A DNA stretch of 59,790 bases from a bacterium (GTDB lineage Bacteria; Actinomycetota; UBA4738; HRBIN12), in assembly GCA_046735355.1 (NCBI GenBank), contig JBKPTC010000076.1, positions 1-59,790 of the forward strand, read 5' to 3'. The notes under the pieces are model-generated. The model searched no databases, was not told where the DNA came from, and worked only from the letters and a program-made list of their open reading frames with translations. Positions 4,330 through 28,029 of this stretch are shown piece after piece (within the stretch, counting starts at the first letter, position 1; the number at the start of each line of letters is the position of its first letter). Both the position numbers and the translations under genes were made by a program.

Positions 4330-5171
4330 CCGCGCCGGAGGGGCTCGTCCTCGTCGACAAACCGGCCGGCGCCACCTCGCACGACGCCGTCGACGCGGTG
4401 CGGCGCGCGCTCGGCACGCGCAAGGTCGGCCACGCGGGCACGCTCGATCCGATGGCCACGGGGCTGCTCGTCCTCGGGGTCGGGCGTGCGACGCGGCTGC
4501 TGCGGTACCTCGGCGAGCTCGACAAGACGTACGAGGGCGGGGCGGTGCTCGGCGTCGAGACCGACACCCTCGACGCCGACGGCGGCGTGGTGCGGACCGC
4601 GCCGGTGGACGTGGGCCGCGAGGACATCGAACGGGTGGCGGCGTCGCTCGTCGGCGAATCGATGCAGCGGCCGCCCGCCTACTCGGCGGTCAAGGTCGGC
4701 GGGCGCAAGCTCTACGAGGCGGCCCGCGCGGGGGAGGAGCTCGAGGCCGAGCCGCGGCCGGTCGTGGTGCGTGCGTTCGACGTCACGTCGTTCGACGGCG
4801 CGTCGTTCGAGTTCCGCGCCGTCGTCTCCTCCGGAACGTACATCCGGGTTCTCGTCGCCGAGGCCGGCGCGGCCCTCGGCTGCGGCGCGCACCTTGACCG
4901 GTTGGTCCGAACGGCGATCGGCCCGTTCAGCCTACGGGAGGCCTCGTCGCTCGACGCCGTCTCGCTGCATCCGATCGAGCGCGCCGTGGCGCATCTGCCG
5001 AGCGTGCGACTGCACGCCGACGAGGCGCGCGTCGCGGCGAACGGCTCCATCCTTGGTCCGGCCGGGATCGAGGGTCCGTACGCCGTGTTCGCGCCGGACG
5101 GCCGCATGATCGGGGTGTACCGCGACGACGGCGGCAAGGCGCGACCGGACATGATCCTGGCGCCGGCGTGA
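4326..5171 (+). CDS. truB: tRNA pseudouridine(55) synthase
   Basis: DKPAGATSHD, KVGHAGTLDPMATG, PPAYSAVK, SSGTYIR. Confidence 0.97.
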   Translation: MTAPEGLVLVDKPAGATSHDAVDAVRRALGTRKVGHAGTLDPMATGLLVLGVGRATRLLRYLGELDKTYEGGAVLGVETDTLDADGGVVRTAPVDVGREDIERVAASLVGESMQRPPAYSAVKVGGRKLYEAARAGEELEAEPRPVVVRAFDVTSFDGASFEFRAVVSSGTYIRVLVAEAGAALGCGAHLDRLVRTAIGPFSLREASSLDAVSLHPIERAVAHLPSVRLHADEARVAANGSILGPAGIEGPYAVFAPDGRMIGVYRDDGGKARPDMILAPA

Positions 5172-5205: not shown

Positions 5206-6324
5206 ATGAACGACGACACGTCCCCGTCCGAGCGGCCGAAGCGCAAGAGCCGCGCCTGGCGGGTCGCGCAGGTCGCCGTCTCGCTCGTCGTGGTCATCGC
5301 CATCTTCGCGTTCGCGATCCCGAAGATCGCCGACTACTCCTCGGTGTGGCGCGCGGTCACGGGGATGACGTGGCTCGAGATCGCCTCGCTCGTCCTGGCG
5401 ACGGTGTTCAACCTGTTCACGTACTGGTGGCAGAACATGGCGTCCATGCCGGGCCTGGGGCTGTGGCAGGCGGCGGTGAACAACCAGACGACGACCTCGA
5501 TCGCCGACACGATCCCCGGCGGCGGGTACGTCGCGGTTCCGCTCGGATACGCGATGTATCGCTCGTGGGGGTTCTCGAACTCCGCGATCGCGCTGTCCGT
5601 CGCCACGACCGGTATCTGGAACATCCTGATGAAGCTCGCGCTGCCGATCATCGCGCTCGCGTTGCTCGCGGTCACCGGCCAGGCGAGCGCCAGCCTCGTC
5701 ACGGCCGCGCTCATCGGGTTGGTGGTCCTCGTCGTGGCCGTCGCGCTGTTCGCCCTGATGCTGTGGCGGGAGTCGTTCGCCGTCCGGATCGGATCGGCGC
5801 TCGGGCGGCCGGTCAGCGCCGTCCGGCGGCTGTTCCACCGGCAACCCGTCGAGTGGGGTCCGGCGGCCGCTCGCTTCCGCCGCGACGTGATCGGGCTCGT
5901 GCGCGAGCGGTGGCTGGCGCTCACCTTCACCACGGTGCTCAGCCATCTCGCGCTCTGGTTCATCCTGTTGCTCTCGCTCCGCCACGTCGGTATCTCCGAG
6001 TCGGAGATCTCGACGGCGCAGGTACTCGGCGTGTTCGCGTTCGGGCGGCTGATCTCGGCGCTGCCGCTCACGCCCGGCGGCGTCGGCGTCGTCGAGCTCA
6101 CGTACATCGGCGGGCTCGTCCTGGCCGGGCGAGCGAACGCCGATGTCCCACCCGACGTCTTCCGCGCTCAGGTCGCGGCGGCGGTGCTGGTCTTCCGAAC
6201 GCTCACGTACGGGGTGCAGATCCCGATCGGCGCGCTCACGTATCTGGTGTGGCGGACGAAGGGCGAGTGGCGTCGTGAGGACGCTCCGGAGGGCCGGCCC
6301 GAACCGGCGGCGCGCCGGGCGTGA
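5206..6324 (+). CDS. LPG-synthase-TM / UPF0104 (flippase-like) integral membrane protein
   Basis: Multiple TM segments, IPGGG, LPLTPGGVGVVE and FR.LTY..IPIG motifs. Confidence 0.8.
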   Translation: MNDDTSPSERPKRKSRAWRVAQVAVSLVVVIAIFAFAIPKIADYSSVWRAVTGMTWLEIASLVLATVFNLFTYWWQNMASMPGLGLWQAAVNNQTTTSIADTIPGGGYVAVPLGYAMYRSWGFSNSAIALSVATTGIWNILMKLALPIIALALLAVTGQASASLVTAALIGLVVLVVAVALFALMLWRESFAVRIGSALGRPVSAVRRLFHRQPVEWGPAAARFRRDVIGLVRERWLALTFTTVLSHLALWFILLLSLRHVGISESEISTAQVLGVFAFGRLISALPLTPGGVGVVELTYIGGLVLAGRANADVPPDVFRAQVAAAVLVFRTLTYGVQIPIGALTYLVWRTKGEWRREDAPEGRPEPAARRA

Positions 6325-6985
6325 TCCCGGCGCGGCGCGCGGCGACGTCTCGCAGCTCCGTCGCCAGGGCGGCCGCGCCGAGCGCAACGCCGCCGCCGAG
6401 CAGGACGCCGGCCACCACGTCGGAGAACCAGTGCGCGTGCAGGTACACGCGCGACAACGCCATCACGAACGCGAACGCCGCCGCCACGAGCTCCCACTTC
6501 CGCCGTCGCGGGCCGCTCGGCATCAGCACGAGCACGAGCGCGACGGCCGTCGCGGCCGCCGCCACCGCGTGTCCTGAGGGGAAGGAGTAGCCGACCACGG
6601 CGACGGCCCGCTCCGGCGGCCGACCGCGGTGGAAGAACGCCTTGGCCGCCGTGAGCAGGACCTCGGCGCTCGCCCACGTGAGCAGCCACGCGGTCAGCGC
6701 CCGCCACCGCGTTCGGACCGCGAGCCACGCCGCGACGACGACGCGGAGCGGGATCGTCACCGTGCCGCCGCCGATGACGTTCAGCGCGCGCGCCGCGGCC
6801 GTCAGGAGCCCGTTCCGGATGTCGTCCGTCAGGTGGTACACGGTCAGGTCGAGCCGGCCGATCGGGAGGAAGGTCGTGGCTGGCGCGTCGGCGGGATCGT
6901 GGCGTCCGACGCCGACGAACAGGGCCGTCGTCGCGAGCAACAGGCCGAGCGACCACCAGAACGTCCGCCGGTGGTTCGCGAGCAC
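6236..6985 (-). CDS. PAP2-family membrane phosphatase
   Basis: Intact K-x6-RP (KAFFHRGRP), FPSGH and SRVYLHAHWFSD motifs; GTG start chosen just after upstream TAA. Confidence 0.85.
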   Translation of the reverse strand: MLANHRRTFWWSLGLLLATTALFVGVGRHDPADAPATTFLPIGRLDLTVYHLTDDIRNGLLTAAARALNVIGGGTVTIPLRVVVAAWLAVRTRWRALTAWLLTWASAEVLLTAAKAFFHRGRPPERAVAVVGYSFPSGHAVAAAATAVALVLVLMPSGPRRRKWELVAAAFAFVMALSRVYLHAHWFSDVVAGVLLGGGVALGAAALATELRDVAARRAGITPGAPPVRAGPPERPHDATRPSSATPDT

Positions 6986-6987
6986 GG

Positions 6988-7551
6988 TTATCCGGGGCAG
7001 CGCGGCGCGCCGGCGCCGCACAGCGTCAGCCCGATCTTCTCGAGCGCGCGACGAACGTCCTCCCGCGGCCGGACGCCGAGGGCCTGCTGGACCTCGAGCG
7101 CCGCCGTGGCGGGCGCCGGCATCGAGAACCGGAACTCGTACGTGATGCAACCGCCCGGGAACCGGAGGAATCGGTCGGCCGAGAAGTTCGGCGCGAGGCC
7201 GAGCGGCCGCTCGTACGTCCGGATACCCGGCGCCGAATCCGGCACGGGGATCTCGACCGCGTCCGACACGTCGCAGGTCGGTGTCAGGCCGATCCGAACG
7301 GCGTGCACGCCCGCGCGGTCGGAGTCGAGCCAGGCCGTGTACGAACCGCGCTCGATCCGCGACCCGGTCAACATCCACCCCGTCGGAAGCGTTCGAACGC
7401 ACGGAAGATACGTCGCCGACGGAACCGACTGCGCCACCAGCAGCCACGGATCGTCCTGGGCGCCGCACGGCGGTGCGTCGGAGCCCGACGACGAGCACGC
7501 GGGGATCAGCGCGGCCAGGGCGAGCACGGCGAACGCCACGCCGCGTCTCAC
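6988..7551 (-). CDS. Putative lipoprotein, unknown function (Cys-containing extracytoplasmic domain)
   Basis: GTG overlapping stop of kinase gene (GTGA); signal peptide ending LIPAC; 187 aa. Confidence 0.75.
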   Translation of the reverse strand: MRRGVAFAVLALAALIPACSSSGSDAPPCGAQDDPWLLVAQSVPSATYLPCVRTLPTGWMLTGSRIERGSYTAWLDSDRAGVHAVRIGLTPTCDVSDAVEIPVPDSAPGIRTYERPLGLAPNFSADRFLRFPGGCITYEFRFSMPAPATAALEVQQALGVRPREDVRRALEKIGLTLCGAGAPRCPG

Positions 7552-9242
7552 GCGGCGACCGCCCAGTTGTTCACGACGAGCGTGATCGCGATGAACGCGA
7601 GGAAGACCACCTCGACGGTGAGCACCACGCGGCGAACGGACCAGCGCTGGATCGAGATCGGCGGCCGCGGCGGCGTCATCGCGCGGAACTGCGCGACCAG
7701 ATCGCGACCGTCCGCCTTCAGCACCGTTCGCAGCTGCGTCGGGCTCGCCACGCCTCGAGCCGCCGCGAACGCCTCGGCGATCTCGTCGTCGGTGAACAGC
7801 CGGCGGGCGTGCGCGTAGACGCGTTCGGCGTCCGAACGTACGGCGAGCACGAGCATCATGTTCGCGAGGTCGACCGCCTGGCGCCACGGCGAGGGCCGCA
7901 CCTGGACGAAGAAGACGTCGATCACCAGGACCTTGCCGTCGCGGACCATGAGGTTGGCCGGCTTGATGTCGCGGTGAGCGAGCCCGGCGTCCCAGAAGCG
8001 CCGGATGATCGAAAGGCCGCTCGCGATGACGTCGTCGTCGACGTCCGCCTCGCCGATCTCGACCGCGCCCTCGAAGAACTCCATCACGATCAGGTACTCG
8101 CGCTCCGGCGTGATCTCGACGACGCCGTACGGTGTCGGCGTCGGGATCCCGGCGTCGCGCAGGAGCCGCAGCGTGTAGTCCTCGTACTCGACGAACCGAC
8201 GCACCGTGCCGAACGGGGTCTCGTCCTCGAGCGCGCCGTACAACACCGCTCGGCCGAGCTTGTACCAACGGTCCGCGCGCACGTGGCTCTTGGCGTAGAG
8301 CTTGCCGAACAGGTCCCGCTCGGGCTCGTCCTCGGTCGCCGCAACGCGCATCCGCAGCGGAGTCGAGCCACCGGATCCCTCCAGGCCGACCGGCTTGAGG
8401 TCGATGACGTCGAGGCCGAGCTGGTCGCGGATGGCCCGCCGGATCGCGTCGCCGCGCCGCCCGCCGACGTCGAGATGCGCGGCCTTGCCGCGCCGGTAGC
8501 TGACCGGGAAGACGTCGTTCGGCGTGAACCATCGGAACGCGATCAACGGGATCGCCACGCCGATCACGATCCCGAACAGCACGTCGGTCGGGTGATCGAC
8601 CGCGAGGTACACGCGTGCGAGCGCGAGCGCGCCGACGACCGCGCCCGCGATGAGCTTCCCCGTCCAGCGCGGTCGTCCCGGAACGATCAGCGTGTACAGG
8701 ATGCCGACGAGCGACGCCGCGAGACCGAGCACCGGGCGCGACGGCAGCGCGTACCCGCTCCACGGGCCGAGCACCACGACCCCGAGCGGTCTCGATCGCG
8801 TGAGCGCGATCGAGGCCTGGTAGCCGATCAACTCGACGACCAACACGCTTCCGGCGAAGACGAGCAGGTGCCGCCATCTGCGGTATGCGACCAGCCCGAG
8901 GATCGTGCCCCACCGCAGCACCCGGATCGTCCAGCGCGATCCGAGCACACCGACCCAGAGCGCGAGGTGCGTCAGCCATCCGGTCCGCAGGCCCGCGATC
9001 GTCGTCAGCACGCGATCCTCCGCGCGTTCCATCACGGCGCCCGATCCCGAGATGAACGCGACGCCGGCGATCGTCGTCGCGAGCAGGACGAGCATCGACA
9101 TCCAGAACCGGCCCGTCCGTCCGAGGTCGTGGGGCAGCGGAGGCGCTTCGCCGGACGGGCGGCGCCGTCTGCTCGCCCGGGTGAGCAGGCGATGGCGCTC
9201 GTCGGCGAGGCGTTCCGTGGGAAGGTCGATGGGGGTCTCCAT
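7548..9242 (-). CDS. Membrane protein: degenerate PAP2 domain fused to protein-kinase-like domain, C-terminal TM helix
   Basis: PAP2-like RSRP/LPSRP/ARVYLAVDHPTD; kinase FGKLY and HRDIKPANL..IDVFF. Confidence 0.85.
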   Translation of the reverse strand: METPIDLPTERLADERHRLLTRASRRRRPSGEAPPLPHDLGRTGRFWMSMLVLLATTIAGVAFISGSGAVMERAEDRVLTTIAGLRTGWLTHLALWVGVLGSRWTIRVLRWGTILGLVAYRRWRHLLVFAGSVLVVELIGYQASIALTRSRPLGVVVLGPWSGYALPSRPVLGLAASLVGILYTLIVPGRPRWTGKLIAGAVVGALALARVYLAVDHPTDVLFGIVIGVAIPLIAFRWFTPNDVFPVSYRRGKAAHLDVGGRRGDAIRRAIRDQLGLDVIDLKPVGLEGSGGSTPLRMRVAATEDEPERDLFGKLYAKSHVRADRWYKLGRAVLYGALEDETPFGTVRRFVEYEDYTLRLLRDAGIPTPTPYGVVEITPEREYLIVMEFFEGAVEIGEADVDDDVIASGLSIIRRFWDAGLAHRDIKPANLMVRDGKVLVIDVFFVQVRPSPWRQAVDLANMMLVLAVRSDAERVYAHARRLFTDDEIAEAFAAARGVASPTQLRTVLKADGRDLVAQFRAMTPPRPPISIQRWSVRRVVLTVEVVFLAFIAITLVVNNWAVAA

Positions 9243-9266
9243 GCGCGTCCGATCGGTGCGGCGACT

Positions 9267-10178
9267 CTATCCGACCTCGCCTCCCGACCCGTTCGGCGAC
9301 AGCCACTCGGACGCGACCGCCGCAACGGATCGGTGTCGAAGGGATACCGCCTCGTTCAACGTCCGGAGCGCGCGCGTCGTGAGCGCCGCCGATACGGCGT
9401 CGAGCGCCTCCGCGAGGCGCGCGCCGAATCGGTCCAGCGTGCTCGTGCGCACGATCGGCGTGATGTTCTCCGCCGGTTGCAGCGACCGGTCGTCGCCAAG
9501 CACGACGAGGTCGTTGGCCTCGATGGAGCCGTCGCTGCTGAACATGACGGCCGCTTGCACCTGGCCGGCGACCAGCGCCGCCGCCGTGACCGGTCCGCTC
9601 TCGTCGAGCGGCACGAACCGCTCGAACGACAGCCCGTACGCCGAACGCAGCCCGGGAAGGCACAGCGGGCGGTCCGGGCACTCGGGTGGGCCGCCGAGCA
9701 CGACGTGATCGTCGACCGCCGCCAGGTCCGAGACCGTCCCGACGTCGAGCTCGGCGGCCGTCTCCCGCGTGACGACGAGGACGTTGCGATCCTGCGCAGG
9801 GGCCGGCGACAGGGCCGTGAGGCCTCGCGACGTCAAGGCGTCGCGCAGCGCCCGCGCCACCGCCTCGGGATCGGCGCTCGCGGGACGGGCCGTGAGGAAC
9901 GTCAGCAGGCTCCCGGCGTATTCGGGAACGACCTCGACGAGCCCTCGCTCGAGCGCCGGCTCGACGAGCTCGCGCGTGCCGAGCTGGAACGCGCGGCGCA
10001 CGGGAAACCCGGCGCCCTCGAGCGCCTGGGCGTAGATCTCGCCGAGCAGGCGGCTCTCCGAGAAGTTGAACGCGCCGACCGTGACCGCGTCGTCCCTCGC
10101 GTCGGATCCGCGCGGGGTGGCGTGCGTGCAGCCGGTTCCGAGCAGCACCACACACGTGATCAGCGCGATCGAGCGCAT
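9267..10178 (-). CDS. OpuAC/OsmF-type glycine betaine ABC substrate-binding lipoprotein
   Basis: Lipobox LGTGC; VTVGAFNFSESRLLGEIYAQALE, VPEYAGS, ECPDRPLCLPGL, QPAENITP. Confidence 0.88.
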   Translation of the reverse strand: MRSIALITCVVLLGTGCTHATPRGSDARDDAVTVGAFNFSESRLLGEIYAQALEGAGFPVRRAFQLGTRELVEPALERGLVEVVPEYAGSLLTFLTARPASADPEAVARALRDALTSRGLTALSPAPAQDRNVLVVTRETAAELDVGTVSDLAAVDDHVVLGGPPECPDRPLCLPGLRSAYGLSFERFVPLDESGPVTAAALVAGQVQAAVMFSSDGSIEANDLVVLGDDRSLQPAENITPIVRTSTLDRFGARLAEALDAVSAALTTRALRTLNEAVSLRHRSVAAVASEWLSPNGSGGEVG

Positions 10179-10236
10179 GCGGTGCACGGTACGCCGTTCC
10201 TCGCCGAGCCGGGGACCGGCGGATACGCTCCGTTCC

Positions 10237-11172
10237 ATGGAGGTTCGCGAGGGACTCGACGCGCTGCCTCGCGACGGCCGGGCGTCGGTCGTGACGATCG
10301 GGTTCTTCGACGGCGTCCACCGAGGGCACCGCGCGGTGTTCGCGCGGATCGCCCAGGCGGCCGCCGAGCGCGGCGCGCGGTCGGTCGCCGTCACGTTCGA
10401 TCGGCATCCGCGTGAGGTCCTCACGCCCGGCACCGAGCCGCGGCTGCTCACGACGATCGAACGCAGGGCCGAGCTGATCGCAGAGAGCGGCGTCGATGAG
10501 CTCGTGGTCCTCGAGTTCACGCCGGAGTTCTCGGGCTGGTCGCCGGAGTCCTTCGTGGATCGGGTGCTCGTCGAGGGCGTGTCGGCCTCGCACGTCGGCG
10601 TGGGCGGCAACTTCACGTTCGGTCATCGGGCGCGGGGCAACATCGCGCTCCTGCGCGCGCTCGGACCGGCGCGAGGGTTCACGGTCGAGGAGGTGCCGCT
10701 GCTGCGGATCGACGGGCGGGTGGTGTCGTCGTCCTCGATCCGTGAGGCGCTTCTCGAGGGCGACCTCCGGTGGCCCGCCACGGCGCTCGGGCGGCCGCAC
10801 GCCGTCGACGGCGTCGTCGTGAGCGGCGCGGGCCGCGGCCACGGCCTCGGCTATCCCACGGCGAACCTGCGCGCGTTTCCGCGGCTGCTGCTTCCGAAGG
10901 CCGGCATCTACGCCGGCCGGGCTCGGACGCCGCTCGGAACCCACGTCGCGGCCATCAGCGTCGGCACCAACCCGACGTTCGGGACCGAGCCGCTGCACAT
11001 CGAGGCGTTCCTCCTCGATTTCGACGGCGATCTCGTGGGCGCCGACGTCTCGATCGAGTTCGTCGAGCGCCTCCGCGACGAGGAGCGGTTCGCGACGCCC
11101 GGGGACCTCGTCCGCGCGATGGACGACGACGTCTCGCGAACGCGCAGGATCGTCGACGGGCACGAGCGGTGA
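10237..11172 (+). CDS. ribF: Bifunctional riboflavin kinase/FAD synthetase
   Basis: IGFFDGVHRGH, VSSSSIR, GRGHGLGYPTANL, GTNPTF. Confidence 0.97.
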   Translation: MEVREGLDALPRDGRASVVTIGFFDGVHRGHRAVFARIAQAAAERGARSVAVTFDRHPREVLTPGTEPRLLTTIERRAELIAESGVDELVVLEFTPEFSGWSPESFVDRVLVEGVSASHVGVGGNFTFGHRARGNIALLRALGPARGFTVEEVPLLRIDGRVVSSSSIREALLEGDLRWPATALGRPHAVDGVVVSGAGRGHGLGYPTANLRAFPRLLLPKAGIYAGRARTPLGTHVAAISVGTNPTFGTEPLHIEAFLLDFDGDLVGADVSIEFVERLRDEERFATPGDLVRAMDDDVSRTRRIVDGHER

Positions 11173-12227
11173 CGGCCGCGCACCGTCGTCGCAGCCGGAT
11201 CCCGTTCGCGGCGGTCGCCGCGTGTCTAGCGGTCGCCGCCGTCGCGCTCGGTGTCGGGCGGAGGGTCGCGACGGGCGATCGAGCCGCATCCTCGGCTCGG
11301 TCGGTGGTCGGGCACGACGGTCGAACCGACGCCGGCGGCGACGCGGCCGCTCCGACGCAGTCGTCGGCGCCTCGTCGGCGCGCGCTCGTGATCCACGGCA
11401 CCGGGGACGTGAGCCTCGACCCGTCGTATCTGCCGGTGTTCGGATCGAACGGCTACGGCTGGGCGTGGAGCGGCCTCGACGGTCTGTTCGAGCGCGACGA
11501 TCTGACGGTCATCAACCTGGAGTGCCCGGCGACCGACGTCGTCGCGCCCGTGCCGAAGGAGTTCAACTTCCGCTGCGATCCGGCCGCGCTGCCCGCGGCG
11601 CGCCGCGCCGGTGTCGACGTCGCGAGCCAGGCGAACAACCACGCGTACGACCAGGGACCCGACGGTCTCGTCGACTCGATCGAGCGGATCCGAGATGCGC
11701 GGATCCAGCCAGTCGGCGCCGGTCGCGATCAGGCCGAGGCGGTGGCACCGGCGACGTTCGAGGTCAACGGGTGGCGCATCGCGGTCGTCGGCATCGATGA
11801 GGTCCTCGACCCGGTCACGATGGTCGCGGGGCCGGGCAAGCCGGGCACCGCCGCGGGGCACGACTTCGACGTGGCGCTCCGTGCGATCCGAGCGGCCGCG
11901 GCCGATGCCGACGTCGTGGTGGTCGAGATCCACTGGGGCGTCGAGCTGGACACGCGGCCGAGGGGGTACCAGGTCCAGGAGGCGCGCCGAATGATCGACG
12001 CCGGCGCCGACGTCATCTTCGGGGCGCATGCGCACCGCCTCCAGCCCATGGCTAGGTACCGCGGCCGCCCGATCTTCTACGGCCTCGGCAACTTCGTGTG
12101 GCCGCGGTTCTCCGCCGAGGGCTCGACGACGGCGGTCGCCGAGGTGCGCGTCTCCCCGGACGGCCGGTTCGAGGGCCGGTTGCTCCCCGCGACCATCGTG
12201 TCGGACGGACATCCGGAGCTCGGCTGA
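11169..12227 (+). CDS. CapA-family metallophosphoesterase with N-terminal membrane anchor
   Basis: GDV, NLE, ANNH, HWG, GAHAH, YGLGNF motifs. Confidence 0.88.
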   Translation: MTAAHRRRSRIPFAAVAACLAVAAVALGVGRRVATGDRAASSARSVVGHDGRTDAGGDAAAPTQSSAPRRRALVIHGTGDVSLDPSYLPVFGSNGYGWAWSGLDGLFERDDLTVINLECPATDVVAPVPKEFNFRCDPAALPAARRAGVDVASQANNHAYDQGPDGLVDSIERIRDARIQPVGAGRDQAEAVAPATFEVNGWRIAVVGIDEVLDPVTMVAGPGKPGTAAGHDFDVALRAIRAAAADADVVVVEIHWGVELDTRPRGYQVQEARRMIDAGADVIFGAHAHRLQPMARYRGRPIFYGLGNFVWPRFSAEGSTTAVAEVRVSPDGRFEGRLLPATIVSDGHPELG

Positions 12228-24873: not shown

Positions 24874-25257
24874 TCAGAGCACGGCGAGTAGCTCGTTCAC
24901 CAGCAACAGCGTCTCGGCCGAGCGTTCCTCGTCGACGACCACGTTCGCGCCGGTCCACGGCTCGTTGGCCCAGTACTCGAACACGTCGGACGGCGCGAAC
25001 CCGCGCGCGACCGCGTTTCGGTGGCTGCGGACCATCTCGGTGCCGTTACCCACGCCCCACGGATGGATCAGGAAGCCACCGCGCCGGCCGTCCTCGGACA
25101 GCCAGATCGCGCCGATCGCGCCCCAGAGCCCGTCGTCCTGCCGGCCCGACACGAGGAGGTAGCGGACACGCCGCTCGGCCTGGAGCTCGAGCACGGACGG
25201 GGTCTCGACGGCGGCGAACGGCGACGCGCCGAGCGCGGCGGTGCTGGTGCGTTCCAT
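24874..25257 (-). CDS. Hypothetical protein
   Basis: GGGAGG RBS before ATG at 25257; globular-looking 127 aa; no family recognised. Confidence 0.6.
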   Translation of the reverse strand: MERTSTAALGASPFAAVETPSVLELQAERRVRYLLVSGRQDDGLWGAIGAIWLSEDGRRGGFLIHPWGVGNGTEMVRSHRNAVARGFAPSDVFEYWANEPWTGANVVVDEERSAETLLLVNELLAVL

Positions 25258-25467
25258 CCGGTCCTCCCGACCGTCGCCGAACATACTCGCCCGGGCCTCC
25301 GGAGACATCGGGCGGAGGAACTAGGACCTCGAGCCGGCCGCGGCGGCTGAGCGATCGCGCCTGCGCGCACGGCGATCGCCTCCGTCCGACGATCCGAGCG
25401 TCGTGGGCCTTCGGGTGGCCGGGTCCGATAGGATGCCGGGACCCCATCGACCGCACGAGGAGGCAGC

Positions 25468-26187
25468 GTGCAGCGTTCGACGATCGGGGTGGGCCCGGCT
25501 CTGCGCAAGGCCAGACAGGCGCGCGGTGTCTCGATCGCCGAGGCGAGCCGGGACACTCGGATCCGGCCGGAGTTCCTCCGGGCGCTCGAGGACGAGGAGT
25601 TCGACCGCCTGCTGGGCGACGTCTACGTTCGCGGTGCGCTTCGGTCCTATGCGACGTACCTCGCCGTTCCGGCCGACCGGGTCCTCCAGCGCTACGCCCG
25701 GGCGGTGGGGGAGATGGAGCCGACGCCTCCGGGGCCGCCGCCCGCCGCCGATCCCGTCGTGGGAGCGCCGCGGCGACGCGACAACCACGTGCTCGTCGGG
25801 ATGCTCGCCGCCGTGTTCGTCGTGCTGGCCGTGTCGTTCGGGATCCTGTCGCCGCGCGCCTCGGCTCCCGCGCCCGCGTCCGCCGTCGGCCAGCCGACCG
25901 CGCACGCCGCGGGTCGCGGGATCTCGTTGTCGGTCTCGACGTCCACGCAGCCGGTCGACGTGTCGGTCCGGGTCGACGGCGAGGACGCTGCGTCGTTCCG
26001 GCTGCTGCCCGGTGAGAGCCGGTCGTTCCTCGCCGACGAGTCGCTCTCGGTGCGCGTCACGCCCGGCGGCACCGCGGACGTCGTCGTGAACGGCGAGAGC
26101 AAGGGCGCGCCCGGCCGATCGGCGGGCTCGTGGTCGCACACGTACAGCTACGGGACGCCGACGGCGTCCGCCCCCGCCAGCGGCTGA
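25468..26187 (+). CDS. RodZ-like HTH membrane protein
   Basis: N-terminal HTH (TRIR..L.ALE..F..VYVRG.LRSYA), one TM, C-terminal beta domain. Confidence 0.85.
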   Translation: MQRSTIGVGPALRKARQARGVSIAEASRDTRIRPEFLRALEDEEFDRLLGDVYVRGALRSYATYLAVPADRVLQRYARAVGEMEPTPPGPPPAADPVVGAPRRRDNHVLVGMLAAVFVVLAVSFGILSPRASAPAPASAVGQPTAHAAGRGISLSVSTSTQPVDVSVRVDGEDAASFRLLPGESRSFLADESLSVRVTPGGTADVVVNGESKGAPGRSAGSWSHTYSYGTPTASAPASG

Positions 26188-26191
26188 TCGC

Positions 26192-27454
26192 GTGCGCGCC
26201 GAGGTCGTGGGTGTCGGCACCGAGCTGCTGCTCGGTCAGATCGCGAACACCAACGCGCAGTGGATCTCCGAGCGGCTGGCCGAGATCGGCGTCGACGTCG
26301 TGTTCCACGACGCCGTCGGCGACAACCACGAGCGGATCGTCGAGGTGCTCGCAGCAGCCACCCGGCGCTCGGACGCCGTGATCGTCACCGGCGGGCTCGG
26401 ACCGACGCAGGACGACATCACGCGTGAGGCCGTCGCCGAGGTCGCGGGCGTGCGCCTCGTCCGTCGTCCGGAGATCGAGGAGTGGCTCCGCCGGCGCTTC
26501 GAGCGCATGGGACGCGAGATGCCCGACTCGAACCTTCGCCAGGCCGACGTGCCCGAGGGCGGCGAGGTCGTCGAGAACGAACGCGGGAGCGCGCCGGGTC
26601 TCGTTGTTCGCGCGGCCGATGCCACGATCTTCGCGCTGCCGGGCGTGCCGTCGGAGATGCGTCAGATGATGCGCGCCGCCGTGCTGCCGCGCCTGACGGC
26701 CGAGGCGGGGCCGGCCGGGATCGTGTCGAGACAGGTGCGGGTCGTCGGGATGGCCGAGTCGAGGATCGCGGAGCTCCTCGACGACCTGTTCCACGGCTCG
26801 TCGAACCCGACCGTCGCGTATCTCGCCGGAGGAGGCGAGGTCCGGGTGCGCCTCACCGCGAAGGCGGCGAGCCTCGGCGAGGCCGAGGATCTGCTCCGCC
26901 CGCTCGCCGAGGAGGTGCAGCGGCGGCTCGGCGACGTCGTGTACTCGACCGGAGACGAGGAGCTCGAGCAGGTGATCGGTCGTCAGCTCAAGGCGGCGCG
27001 GAAGACGGTCGCGGCGGCCGAGTCGCTCACGGGCGGTGGGGTGGCGCGGCGGCTGACCGCGGCGCCGGGCGCGTCGGCGTACTTCCGGGGCGCGGCGGTC
27101 GTGTACACGGCCGAGGCGAAGGAGCGTGTGCTCGGCGTCTCGGCCGAGACGATCGAGCGCGAGGGCGTGGTGAGCGAGGCGACGGCGCGGGAGATGGCGG
27201 CCGGCGCGCGGAGGATCTTCGAGGCGGACGTCGCGGTGGCGCTCACCGGATCCGCCGGCCCCGAGCCGCACGACGGGGCCGCGCCCGGAACGGTCTGGAT
27301 CGCGCTCGAGGCGGACGACCGTTCGCACGCGCGTGAGCTCCGCGTTCCGGGCGACCGGACCACGGTGCTGCGCTGGTCCGAGCAGGCCGCGCTCGATCTG
27401 CTGCGGCGGTACCTCGGCGACATCCCGCTGCCGGCCGGCCCGACGCTCGTGTGA
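26192..27454 (+). CDS. cinA: Competence/damage-inducible protein CinA
   Basis: GTELLLGQIANTNA, GGLGPTQDDIT, AESLTGG. Confidence 0.95.
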   Translation: MRAEVVGVGTELLLGQIANTNAQWISERLAEIGVDVVFHDAVGDNHERIVEVLAAATRRSDAVIVTGGLGPTQDDITREAVAEVAGVRLVRRPEIEEWLRRRFERMGREMPDSNLRQADVPEGGEVVENERGSAPGLVVRAADATIFALPGVPSEMRQMMRAAVLPRLTAEAGPAGIVSRQVRVVGMAESRIAELLDDLFHGSSNPTVAYLAGGGEVRVRLTAKAASLGEAEDLLRPLAEEVQRRLGDVVYSTGDEELEQVIGRQLKAARKTVAAAESLTGGGVARRLTAAPGASAYFRGAAVVYTAEAKERVLGVSAETIEREGVVSEATAREMAAGARRIFEADVAVALTGSAGPEPHDGAAPGTVWIALEADDRSHARELRVPGDRTTVLRWSEQAALDLLRRYLGDIPLPAGPTLV

Positions 27455-28029
27455 TGGACGTCGACCGCGTCTCGCGAGCCGAGGCGAGGTCGCGCAGGCT
27501 GTTCGTCGCCGTCGACGTGCCGGACGCGGTTCGCGCGCTCGTCGCGTCGGCGGCCCGGGCGCTTCGCGACGACCATCCGCGTGCGCGCTGGGTGCCCGAG
27601 CGGAACCAGCACGTCACCCTCAAGTTCCTCGGATCGACGGACGCCGGGCTGCTCGACCGCGTGACCGCTGCCGTTGCGGAGGTCGCGGCGGGCGAGCGCG
27701 CGTTCCGAACGCGCGTCGCCGGCTTCGGCGCGTTTCCGAACCCTCGCCGCGCGCGCGTGCTGTGGGCGGGGCTGTCCGACGAGGACGAGCGGCTCGCCGC
27801 GCTGGCCGGCGCGCTGGACCGCGCGCTGGTCCCGGAGTTCGAGCCGGAGGGACGCCCGTTCACGCCGCATCTGACGGTCGCCCGGTTCGACCCGCCGGCA
27901 CGGGTCGGCGAGGTACCGGAGGTGCGTTCGGAGCCGTTCCTCGTCGATCGGGTGGTGCTGTTCGAGAGTCACGTCCGGCGACCGGCGCCGGTGTACGAGC
28001 CGATCGCCGAGTGCGCGCTCGGTCGTTGA
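27454..28029 (+). CDS. thpR: RNA 2',3'-cyclic phosphodiesterase (2H family)
   Basis: RLFVAV, HVTLKFLG and PHLTVAR 2H motifs. Confidence 0.93.
   Translation: MDVDRVSRAEARSRRLFVAVDVPDAVRALVASAARALRDDHPRARWVPERNQHVTLKFLGSTDAGLLDRVTAAVAEVAAGERAFRTRVAGFGAFPNPRRARVLWAGLSDEDERLAALAGALDRALVPEFEPEGRPFTPHLTVARFDPPARVGEVPEVRSEPFLVDRVVLFESHVRRPAPVYEPIAECALGR

Follow-up and report, generated by a model that had tools for sequence, protein, structure and literature searches.

A membrane kinase with a PAP2-like domain that has lost its catalytic histidines is encoded with an orphan OpuAC-like binding protein and lipid enzymes in uncultured Actinomycetota

What could a solute-binding lipoprotein without a transporter be doing next to a membrane-bound kinase? 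This question is raised by a group of five genes that occupy the interval between truB and ribF in an actinobacterial genome (G000; assembly GCA_046735355.1, 95.7% complete in 168 contigs), within what we call here the window, the whole stretch of DNA analysed, 59,790 nucleotides of contig JBKPTC010000076.1 (C76) with a G+C content of about 72%. A sequence-only reading of the window had described four linked minus-strand genes in this interval and these were confirmed, as they lie head to tail and encode, in this order, an OpuAC-like lipoprotein, a fusion of a PAP2-like domain to a kinase domain, a second lipoprotein and a PAP2 phosphatase. A fifth gene, located on the plus strand and coding for a flippase-like membrane protein, had however been overlooked (Table 1). 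We propose, with somewhat better than even confidence, that the five genes constitute one envelope module in which a receptor kinase, assisted by the binding protein, controls a pair formed by a lipid phosphatase and a flippase. Such a module looks like an undescribed bacterial way of sensing the envelope or the surroundings and of adjusting membrane lipids.

The central protein of the group is the membrane kinase, in which a cytoplasmic N-terminal motif, RRRPSGEPPPLP, is followed by a six-helix PAP2-like domain, a RIO/Hanks-like kinase domain and a last transmembrane helix. Profile searches recognised this protein poorly: in Pfam, RIO1 scored 24.0 bits (cut-off 22) over residues 346-443 only, PAP2 scored 22.2 bits (cut-off 27.2) and the APH and Kdo/WaaP profiles matched weakly, while NCBIfam returned only sub-threshold Bud32 and Rio1 models. 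Pfam Pkinase was not reported for the window kinase; some of its homologues carry a precomputed PF00069, and in the homologue of locus L085 the PAP2 profile reached 36.2 bits in the N-terminal domain, above the cut-off. The catalytic residues are much more telling, since in an alignment of 52 homologues five positions of the Gly-rich loop GSGGST (G286, S290, G291, S293 and T294), K314, E354 (the probable alpha-C Glu), the residues H423-R424-D425-K427-N430 of the HRDIKPAN loop and D442 are all invariant (52/52). The canonical DFG motif is replaced by IDVFF, and this should not be a loss of function because the metal-binding Asp, D442, is retained in every homologue. The intact HRDIKPAN, the DVF in the place of DFG and the final transmembrane helix had all been claimed before and were all found in the translation. 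The kinase is probably active, given the invariance of its catalytic residues. Only about 14 residues separate D442 from the next conserved helix (QAVDLANMM), and neither an activation loop nor an APE motif is present. An AlphaFold2 (AF2) model of the protein (mean predicted local distance difference test, pLDDT, of 79.6; last helix at residues 536-563) retrieved with Foldseek, as its best matches, Rio1, PRPK/Bud32, RIOK1/3 and PknB, all with E values of about 1e-6. Rio1 was the top match (TM-score of 0.53-0.58 normalised to the target) and no lipid or small-molecule kinase appeared among the 50 matches listed.

PAP2 enzymes are defined by three motifs, C1 (K-x6-RP), C2 (PSGH) and C3 (SR-x5-H-x3-D). 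In the N-terminal domain of the kinase, PSRP stands where PSGH is expected and R-x5-D (ARVYLAVDHPTD) where R-x5-H is expected, so that the loss of both catalytic His, noticed in the sequence-only reading, is real; furthermore, it is a family trait, the Pro and the Asp that occupy these positions (Pro170 and Asp216) being at least 90% conserved among the 52 homologues, in which there is also no conserved Lys at C1. Two Arg, R151 and R210, are conserved in the same alignment, and we take them to be the two phosphate-binding Arg of PAP2 enzymes. The domain is homologous to PAP2 and yet is predicted to be no phosphatase. According to the helices of the AF2 model and a positive-inside N-terminus, the N-terminus would be located inside the cell, six helices would follow with the vestigial PAP2 pocket facing outward, the kinase domain would be cytoplasmic and the last helix would lead to the outside. 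The RRRPSGEPPPLP motif is nearly invariant, precedes the first membrane helix and may be a phospho-acceptor (a basic Ser site) or a docking site. Its Ser becomes Thr or Ala in some paralogues.

The window kinase terminates a few residues past its last helix, whereas fused homologues continue from this point into an outer domain. The small lipoprotein encoded next, which has a lipobox Cys (Cys19) and belongs to no Pfam or NCBIfam family, is translationally coupled to the kinase, as had been proposed, through a start GTG that overlaps the TGA stop of the kinase gene (GTGA). The suggestion that it could be a detached ectodomain of the kinase was borne out by natural fusions. Four of the 21 homologues that were aligned have a kinase frame running on beyond the last helix, and the domain that it enters can be aligned with the lipoprotein over its full length; a search with the lipoprotein limited to longer proteins gave 126 hits (E ≤ 0.001), nearly all of them of 680-750 amino acids and annotated as PAP2 or Bud32. 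An outer-domain homologue was found directly downstream of the kinase or fused to it in 71 of the 75 loci assessable among the best 80 public ones, 32 of these 71 being fusions. The identification of the lipoprotein as the detached outer domain of the kinase is therefore directly supported, because the same domain occurs naturally fused after the last kinase helix in its relatives. In at least five orthologues of the split type the kinase and lipoprotein genes overlap by 4 bases, like the pair of the window. A FastTree phylogeny of 81 kinases separated two halves with a local support of 99, one with 33 rows (31 fused) and the other with 48 rows (40 split and 3 'fused'); this tree was midpoint-rooted only and is compatible with either order of fission and fusion. 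The module offers a clean example from nature of a receptor that is found in two forms, one a single polypeptide and the other a kinase with a separate lipoprotein.

The lipoprotein was modelled with good scores (pLDDT of 87.6 and predicted TM-score, pTM, of 0.80) and its fold matches were moderate and all of the Mog1/PsbP kind. They comprised BT_1490 in Foldseek (E value of 5e-4) and, in VIA-align, where a Z of 8 was treated as the level of a clear match, Tsi3 (6.9), MTC28 (6.8), LpqN (6.2), Apa (5.5) and the PknH sensor domain (4.7), all below it. Three of its Cys (C51, C93 and C135) are invariant and two more (C178 and C185) are nearly so, which would fit an extracytoplasmic, disulfide-bonded domain. 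A Protein Atlas look-up led only to actinobacterial clusters without a name, the nearest named family being DUF4245 with a score of 0.83, below the meaningful level.

The OpuAC-like protein carries a signal peptide and a Cys (Cys17) invariant in 15 aligned homologues, and its assignment is strong (148.9 bits in Pfam OpuAC against a cut-off of 21.2; E value of 2.6e-43), the NCBIfam match being a sub-threshold OsmF. Among its 27 solved relatives the best were Lmo1422, OsmF, EgtUC and ProX (E values from 1e-23 to 1e-16), and the solved relatives as a group bind betaine, choline, carnitine and ergothioneine (1e-23 to 1e-9). The invariant residues include C17, Y87, N132, C167, C173, F213, E237 and N238, and two invariant stretches, GGPxECPxRxLC and QPAEN, form a signature particular to the subfamily. 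Mapping of the aromatic cage, for which we used the alignment with Lmo1422 and assumed the ProX positions, indicates that Y87 and F213 are kept and that the invariant N132 and E237 presumably replace Tyr. As two cage positions are presumably invariant Asn and Glu and the subfamily has a signature of its own, the ligand is probably not a classical betaine.

This binding protein is an orphan. The genome has 41 BPD_transp_1 permease matches and 60 ABC-ATPases that match the ProV model, but not one of either set is located on the window contig, in agreement with the initial observation that no ABC permease or ATPase accompanies it. A distant partner, which would have changed this picture, did not turn up either in the 95.7% of the genome that is covered: the ProV equivalog was absent, the best ATPase being a PotA with 255 bits (cut-off 326.6) and the three best loci for this model corresponding to Pot, Cys and Tau/Sao-type transporters, and no choline/ProW-type permease was found, the only match (46 bits against a cut-off of 363) being a TauC/SaoP-like permease. 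With no ABC permease or ATPase of the betaine type in this genome, the binding protein is left there without a cognate ABC transporter. The genome contains a second OpuAC match, 44% identical (contig C11, about 25160-27513; L034), whose neighbours are a class III adenylate cyclase of the membrane and a peptide transporter equipped with its own binding protein. In the relative G002, the gene most similar to this second one (L013:14355-15263) adjoins a second kinase-lipoprotein pair. Orphan OpuAC-type proteins may serve several membrane signalling enzymes.

The two remaining genes code for proteins related to lipids. The PAP2 protein is intact, as had been read in the sequence, with all three motifs in its translation (C1 KAFFHRGRP, C2 PSGH and C3 SRVYLHAHWFSD) and 63.8 bits in Pfam against a cut-off of 27.2. 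With the PgpB, SepP and UppP models of NCBIfam it scored only 22-36 bits (cut-offs of 229-261), so that these equivalogs point to no particular substrate, and it is best described as a PAP2 family member predicted to be a lipid-phosphate phosphatase. The flippase-like protein matches Pfam LPG_synthase_TM with 54.1 bits (cut-off 33.4). Its NCBIfam matches (MprF or 'flippase-like domain') are sub-threshold, with 34 bits against 600 for the bifunctional MprF equivalog, and it consists of the transmembrane domain only, without the C-terminal aminoacyl-PG synthase domain, so we regard it as predicted to be flippase-like only and not an MprF synthase/flippase.

The architecture of relatives of these proteins gives further hints about their function. 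In cluster representatives, the unit formed by the PAP2-like and kinase domains is preceded by a receiver domain in P0247 and P0259 (the latter also with a LuxR helix-turn-helix domain), by a STAND NTPase with TPR in P0249, P0250, P0251 and P0263; P0304 has only the TPR in this position, and P0282 a live PAP2 domain (84 bits). The receiver and STAND-TPR fusions point to signalling. A further candidate, P0300, in which a C-terminal fragment of OpuAC and the kinase are in one frame, was not counted, its topology being inconsistent and the intergenic gap being only about 24 bases. Concerning the flippase-like domain, in four loci it forms the C-terminal half of proteins of 805-835 amino acids (L107:11142-13649, L105:11083-13521, L099:3568-5985 and L097, about 9152-11602), in which the stretch from about residue 290 to 540 shows homology to the kinase of the window (28% identity, E value of 4e-7). 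With HGV for HRD and TGL for DVF, this part is predicted to be a pseudokinase, since the Asp of both HRD and DFG are lost. In L106 and L107 an ABC1/UbiB-type kinase gene was also observed directly after the receptor kinase.

The arrangement of the window is not due to chance, because it recurs in many genomes. At least 559 species-level genomes contain a relative; a library search gave 2016 representatives with E ≤ 0.001 and 543 clusters (at 50% identity) with E ≤ 1e-30. A survey of public genomes confirmed 559 loci, and the figures that follow come from the best 80, the most similar to the query, and so describe near relatives (39 of the split type and 34 of the fused type). That the genes co-occur elsewhere, on which the earlier proposal depended, is clear in the split type: the OpuAC gene was directly upstream of the kinase and on the same strand in 34/35 loci (17/31 in the fused type; 53/72 overall), a PAP2 gene was present within 1 kb downstream in 34/36 (7/29; 41/69) and a flippase-like gene within 3 kb in 25/27 (9/22; 34/52), with both truB and ribF in 19/20 (2/20; 21/43). 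The tblastn counts understate the fused type and, when Pfam was applied to 85 open reading frames from 15 divergent fused loci, further PAP2 genes were found in four of them and LPG_synthase_TM in seven, on either side and on either strand; in four of these seven the flippase-like domain is the one joined to a pseudokinase. In a set of relatives made of 20 loci from 18 related genomes plus the paralogue of the source genome itself, the kinase and the outer domain were present in 18/20 and all five genes in 10/20. Three of these ten (L025, L026 and L028) have neither truB nor ribF and show other gene orders.

The genes also come and go together. Among 41 related genomes, 22 contain a full-length kinase (E < 1e-100), and the 20 with the lipoprotein and the 18 with an OpuAC-like match (E ≤ 1e-70) are all within these 22; leaving out the genomes flagged as unpublished, G023 from all the tallies and G029 and G037 from that of OpuAC, gives 21/40, 19/40 and 17/38, respectively, and does not change the conclusions. 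In three of the five kinase-less relatives of the same family (L122, L124 and L125) ribF directly follows truB, and in the other two the sequence ends or ribF is not within 1.5 kb. The module behaves as a cassette, present or absent as one block at the truB-ribF site. The adjacency of both genes in these relatives fits either gain or loss of the cassette and does not decide the direction.

All the 80 public loci come from metagenome-assembled genomes, most of them labelled as Actinomycetota or 'uncultured Actinomycetes'. The module is common in uncultured soil and sediment Actinomycetota, and fused forms are also present in Acidimicrobiia (Microthrixaceae and Ilumatobacteraceae) and in bins labelled as Mycobacteriales and Streptosporangiaceae. 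A full split-type module with a kinase 67% identical to that of the window was found in a bin labelled as Armatimonadota (L043), all the others being Actinomycetota, and this label may be a binning error. Genomes often have several copies, with up to five near-full-length matches (E ≤ 1e-100) in one of them. The source genome has a second, diverged copy of the core on contig C163 (7966-11904; L121), with a kinase paralogue 48% identical to that of the window, a lipoprotein paralogue that overlaps its stop codon, a live PAP2 (63.7 bits) on the opposite strand and, further on, a protein with an adenylate/guanylate cyclase domain. Neither an OpuAC nor a flippase-like gene was observed on the 12 kb of this contig.

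The features of the locus are collected in Table 1. The genes are tightly packed, with gaps of 24 bases between the OpuAC-like and kinase genes and of 2 bases between the lipoprotein and PAP2 genes, and the PAP2 and flippase-like genes are convergent, with 3' ends that overlap by 89 bases (6236-6324). Orthologues show similar convergent overlaps, of 29 bases (L014), 82 bases (L022) and 95 bases (L024). A scan for promoters and terminators between 5000 and 10600 gave no promoter-like sites and two terminator-like sites, both within the flippase-like gene and not exceeding the shuffled controls, and is uninformative at 72% G+C.

Table 1. Genes, domains and flanking features of the truB-ribF interval (positions in the window)
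Feature	Position	Strand	Basis
OpuAC-like solute-binding lipoprotein, 303 aa	10178..9267	-	Pfam OpuAC
PAP2-like::kinase fusion (membrane kinase), 564 aa	9242..7548	-	Pfam RIO1 and weak PAP2, motifs
Cys-rich lipoprotein, 187 aa	7551..6988	-	Lipobox Cys19, GTGA overlap with kinase stop
Intact PAP2 lipid-phosphate phosphatase (predicted), 249 aa	6985..6236	-	Three PAP2 motifs, Pfam
LPG_synthase_TM (MprF-type flippase-like) membrane protein, 372 aa	5206..6324	+	Pfam
N-terminal motif RRRPSGEPPPLP of kinase, aa 25-36	9134-9169	-	Alignment
PAP2-like transmembrane domain of kinase, about aa 40-240	8523..9125	-	Alignments, Pfam PAP2
Kinase domain, about aa 262-525	7668..8459	-	Invariant residues, structure matches
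Last transmembrane helix of kinase, aa 536-563	7554..7637	-	AF2 model
truB, flank (start approximate)	4332..5171	+	
ribF, flank	10237..11172	+	

How could these proteins work together? In the reading that we favour, the kinase would be anchored by a six-helix domain descended from a PAP2 lipid phosphatase, with its vestigial pocket outward, and its last helix would lead out to a disulfide-rich sensor domain, which here would be the separate, translationally coupled lipoprotein. The OpuAC-like lipoprotein would most likely report a non-betaine ligand to the outer face of this receptor, as GlnH does for GlnX-PknG (see below); we infer the sensor roles of both the binding protein and the outer domain, as well as the direction of signalling, from this arrangement. 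The output of the kinase would most likely be the live PAP2 and the MprF-type flippase-like protein, reached by phosphorylation or by pairing, and the dead PAP2 domain could be an anchor or a sensor of lipid phosphate. A more speculative version of this idea, which we put forward only tentatively, is that the module represents a new class of bacterial receptor kinase, with the dead phosphatase serving as the sensor in the membrane: the pocket that faces outward would still bind a lipid phosphate, such as a polyprenyl phosphate carrier or phosphatidic acid, and would set the activity of the kinase together with the PsbP-like domain and the OpuAC protein, and, with the kinase controlling the flippase/phosphatase pair, the cell would measure and correct its envelope lipid carriers.

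Several observations weigh against the binding-protein-assisted receptor. The OpuAC gene is not obligatory, because it is missing next to 14/31 fused-type kinases, and weaker OpuAC-like matches occur in 6 of the 19 relatives that lack the kinase. The Mog1/PsbP fold predicted for the outer domain is only moderate in its matches. The fused architectures are metagenome gene calls and could be in part run-on frames, although several independent clusters agree on them, and no cultured organism was seen among the loci. Moreover, all the neighbours are lipid enzymes and not classic kinase substrates such as FHA proteins, and a lipid or sugar substrate would be compatible with the kinase, since it has no activation loop or APE, only a short activation segment, and matches the Kdo/WaaP and APH profiles weakly.

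These last points are also the basis of the main rival explanation, a cycle of lipid phosphorylation, flipping and dephosphorylation. The kinase would then act on a lipid or a lipid-linked sugar, the PAP2-like domain would hold it at the membrane and present the substrate, the flippase-like protein would move the phosphorylated lipid outward, and, outside, the live PAP2 would remove or transfer the phosphate; an acceptor would be supplied or sensed by the binding protein together with the outer domain. It is attractive that every partner is a lipid-handling membrane protein, that the kinase is always fused to a domain derived from a lipid phosphatase, that some neighbourhoods contain an ABC1/UbiB kinase, PLD or a fatty-acid desaturase, and that the joining of a kinase-like and a flippase-like domain in relatives recalls the synthase-flippase layout of MprF. 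However, the kinase-like domain of that flippase partner has no catalytic Asp and cannot be the enzyme of the cycle, and, with the PAP2 pocket outside and the kinase inside, the dead domain cannot hand a ligand directly to the kinase. The catalytic loop HRDIKPAN contains the Lys that characterises the Ser/Thr kinases of proteins, the closest structures among the 50 matches listed belong to protein kinases without exception, and the receiver and STAND-TPR fusions mentioned above speak of signalling as well. We thus consider this cycle rather doubtful as the function of the module.

We find it improbable that the protein is instead a regulatory scaffold, that is, an ATPase switch like RIO or Bud32 devoted to the assembly of an envelope machine, without phosphotransfer and with a merely structural binding protein. 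RIO1 and Bud32, which act largely as ATPases, are indeed its best Pfam and NCBIfam matches, its activation segment is short and there are several paralogues per genome, up to five in one of them, but the same data fit a true kinase, and both the receiver/STAND fusions and the conserved basic RRRPSG motif fit phosphorylation-based signalling. Finally, it is very improbable that the OpuAC-like protein works as a conventional binding protein for transport, adjacent to the kinase by inherited synteny and with an ABC partner that is not of the betaine type or lies in the missing 4% of this genome in 168 contigs (as the OpuAC-like matches in kinase-less relatives and the 46-bit match of a TauC/SaoP-like permease to the choline permease model might suggest), since the OpuAC-kinase pairing is shared by the two deep clades and is not confined to the truB-ribF site (17/31 fused-type loci, with truB and ribF in only 2/20), the second OpuAC-like gene of the genome also has no betaine transporter alongside and adjoins an adenylate cyclase, and two of the four aromatic-cage positions are presumably Asn and Glu.

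Full-text literature searches gave no description of the PAP2-like-kinase fusion or of this gene set, although closed preprint supplements could list the family. The words PAP2, LPG and flippase do not occur in the main texts of a preprint atlas of bacterial serine/threonine kinases (10.1101/2025.01.12.632604) and of a review on pseudokinases (PMC12599244), and in public records homologues of the kinase go under generic names ('RIO1 family regulatory kinase/ATPase', 'phosphatase PAP2 family protein' or 'Bud32'). The closest proposal concerns the SEAE1 'PAP2-PIK-like' module of Segetibacter, for which the authors suggest that a kinase-like protein cooperates with a PAP2 phosphatase encoded nearby and with a secreted protein whose function is not known (bioRxiv 10.64898/2026.09.18.752743). 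That kinase is soluble and of another family, is found in Bacteroidota without a PAP2-like fusion and is reported there as restricted to one genus.

The individual parts of the module are more familiar. Like PgpB, SepP, LpxE and LpxT, the PAP2 phosphatase gene has all three PAP2 motifs and the N-terminal domain of the kinase is homologous to these enzymes, but, unlike in them, this domain has lost the C1 Lys and both His across the whole family; if our interpretation holds, a pseudo-enzyme would here have a sensory role. The kinase shares its fold and catalytic residues with RIO, Bud32 and Hanks kinases such as PknB, its catalytic loop being Hanks-like and its size and missing activation loop RIO-like. 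However, it differs from RIO and Bud32 in being embedded in the membrane on both sides and in having no RIO or KEOPS partners, and from PknB in its PAP2-like anchor, which takes the place of a single helix with PASTA domains.

A connection between kinases and flippases has a precedent in MviN of Mycobacterium tuberculosis, which is described as a MurJ flippase fused to the ActPs3 pseudokinase, with a shortened activation loop, and to an outer domain, and as being regulated by PknB, its phosphorylation recruiting FhaA and inhibiting peptidoglycan synthesis (PMC12599244; 10.1101/2025.01.12.632604). The relatives of the module in which a pseudokinase is fused to the flippase-like partner resemble this arrangement as it is described there, although the flippase-like domain is LPG_synthase_TM and not MurJ, and the flippase-like protein of the window has no pseudokinase. 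Bacterial sensing of the state of lipid carriers in the membrane is still very poorly understood, and the module bears on this question.

The best comparison for the module as a whole is the GlnH-GlnX-PknG system of Mycobacterium and Corynebacterium, which a review presents as the one Ser/Thr kinase characterised so far that a binding protein stimulates (PMC8050422). Both systems are actinobacterial, and in both the gene of a solute-binding lipoprotein adjoins those for a kinase and a transducer in the membrane. In GlnH-GlnX-PknG the binding protein signals and does not transport, and the binding-protein gene of the window is likewise linked to a kinase and has no transporter. The components are nevertheless different, because GlnH is of the SBP_bac_3 type, the outer domains of GlnX are four-helix bundles and PknG is a separate soluble kinase, whereas the window encodes an OpuAC-type binding protein and a transducer made of a dead PAP2 and a PsbP-like domain to which the kinase is fused, and its partners are lipid enzymes in the place of GarA-type substrates. 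If our interpretation is correct, the module would be a second kinase system driven by a solute-binding protein, differently built from that of GlnH-GlnX-PknG.

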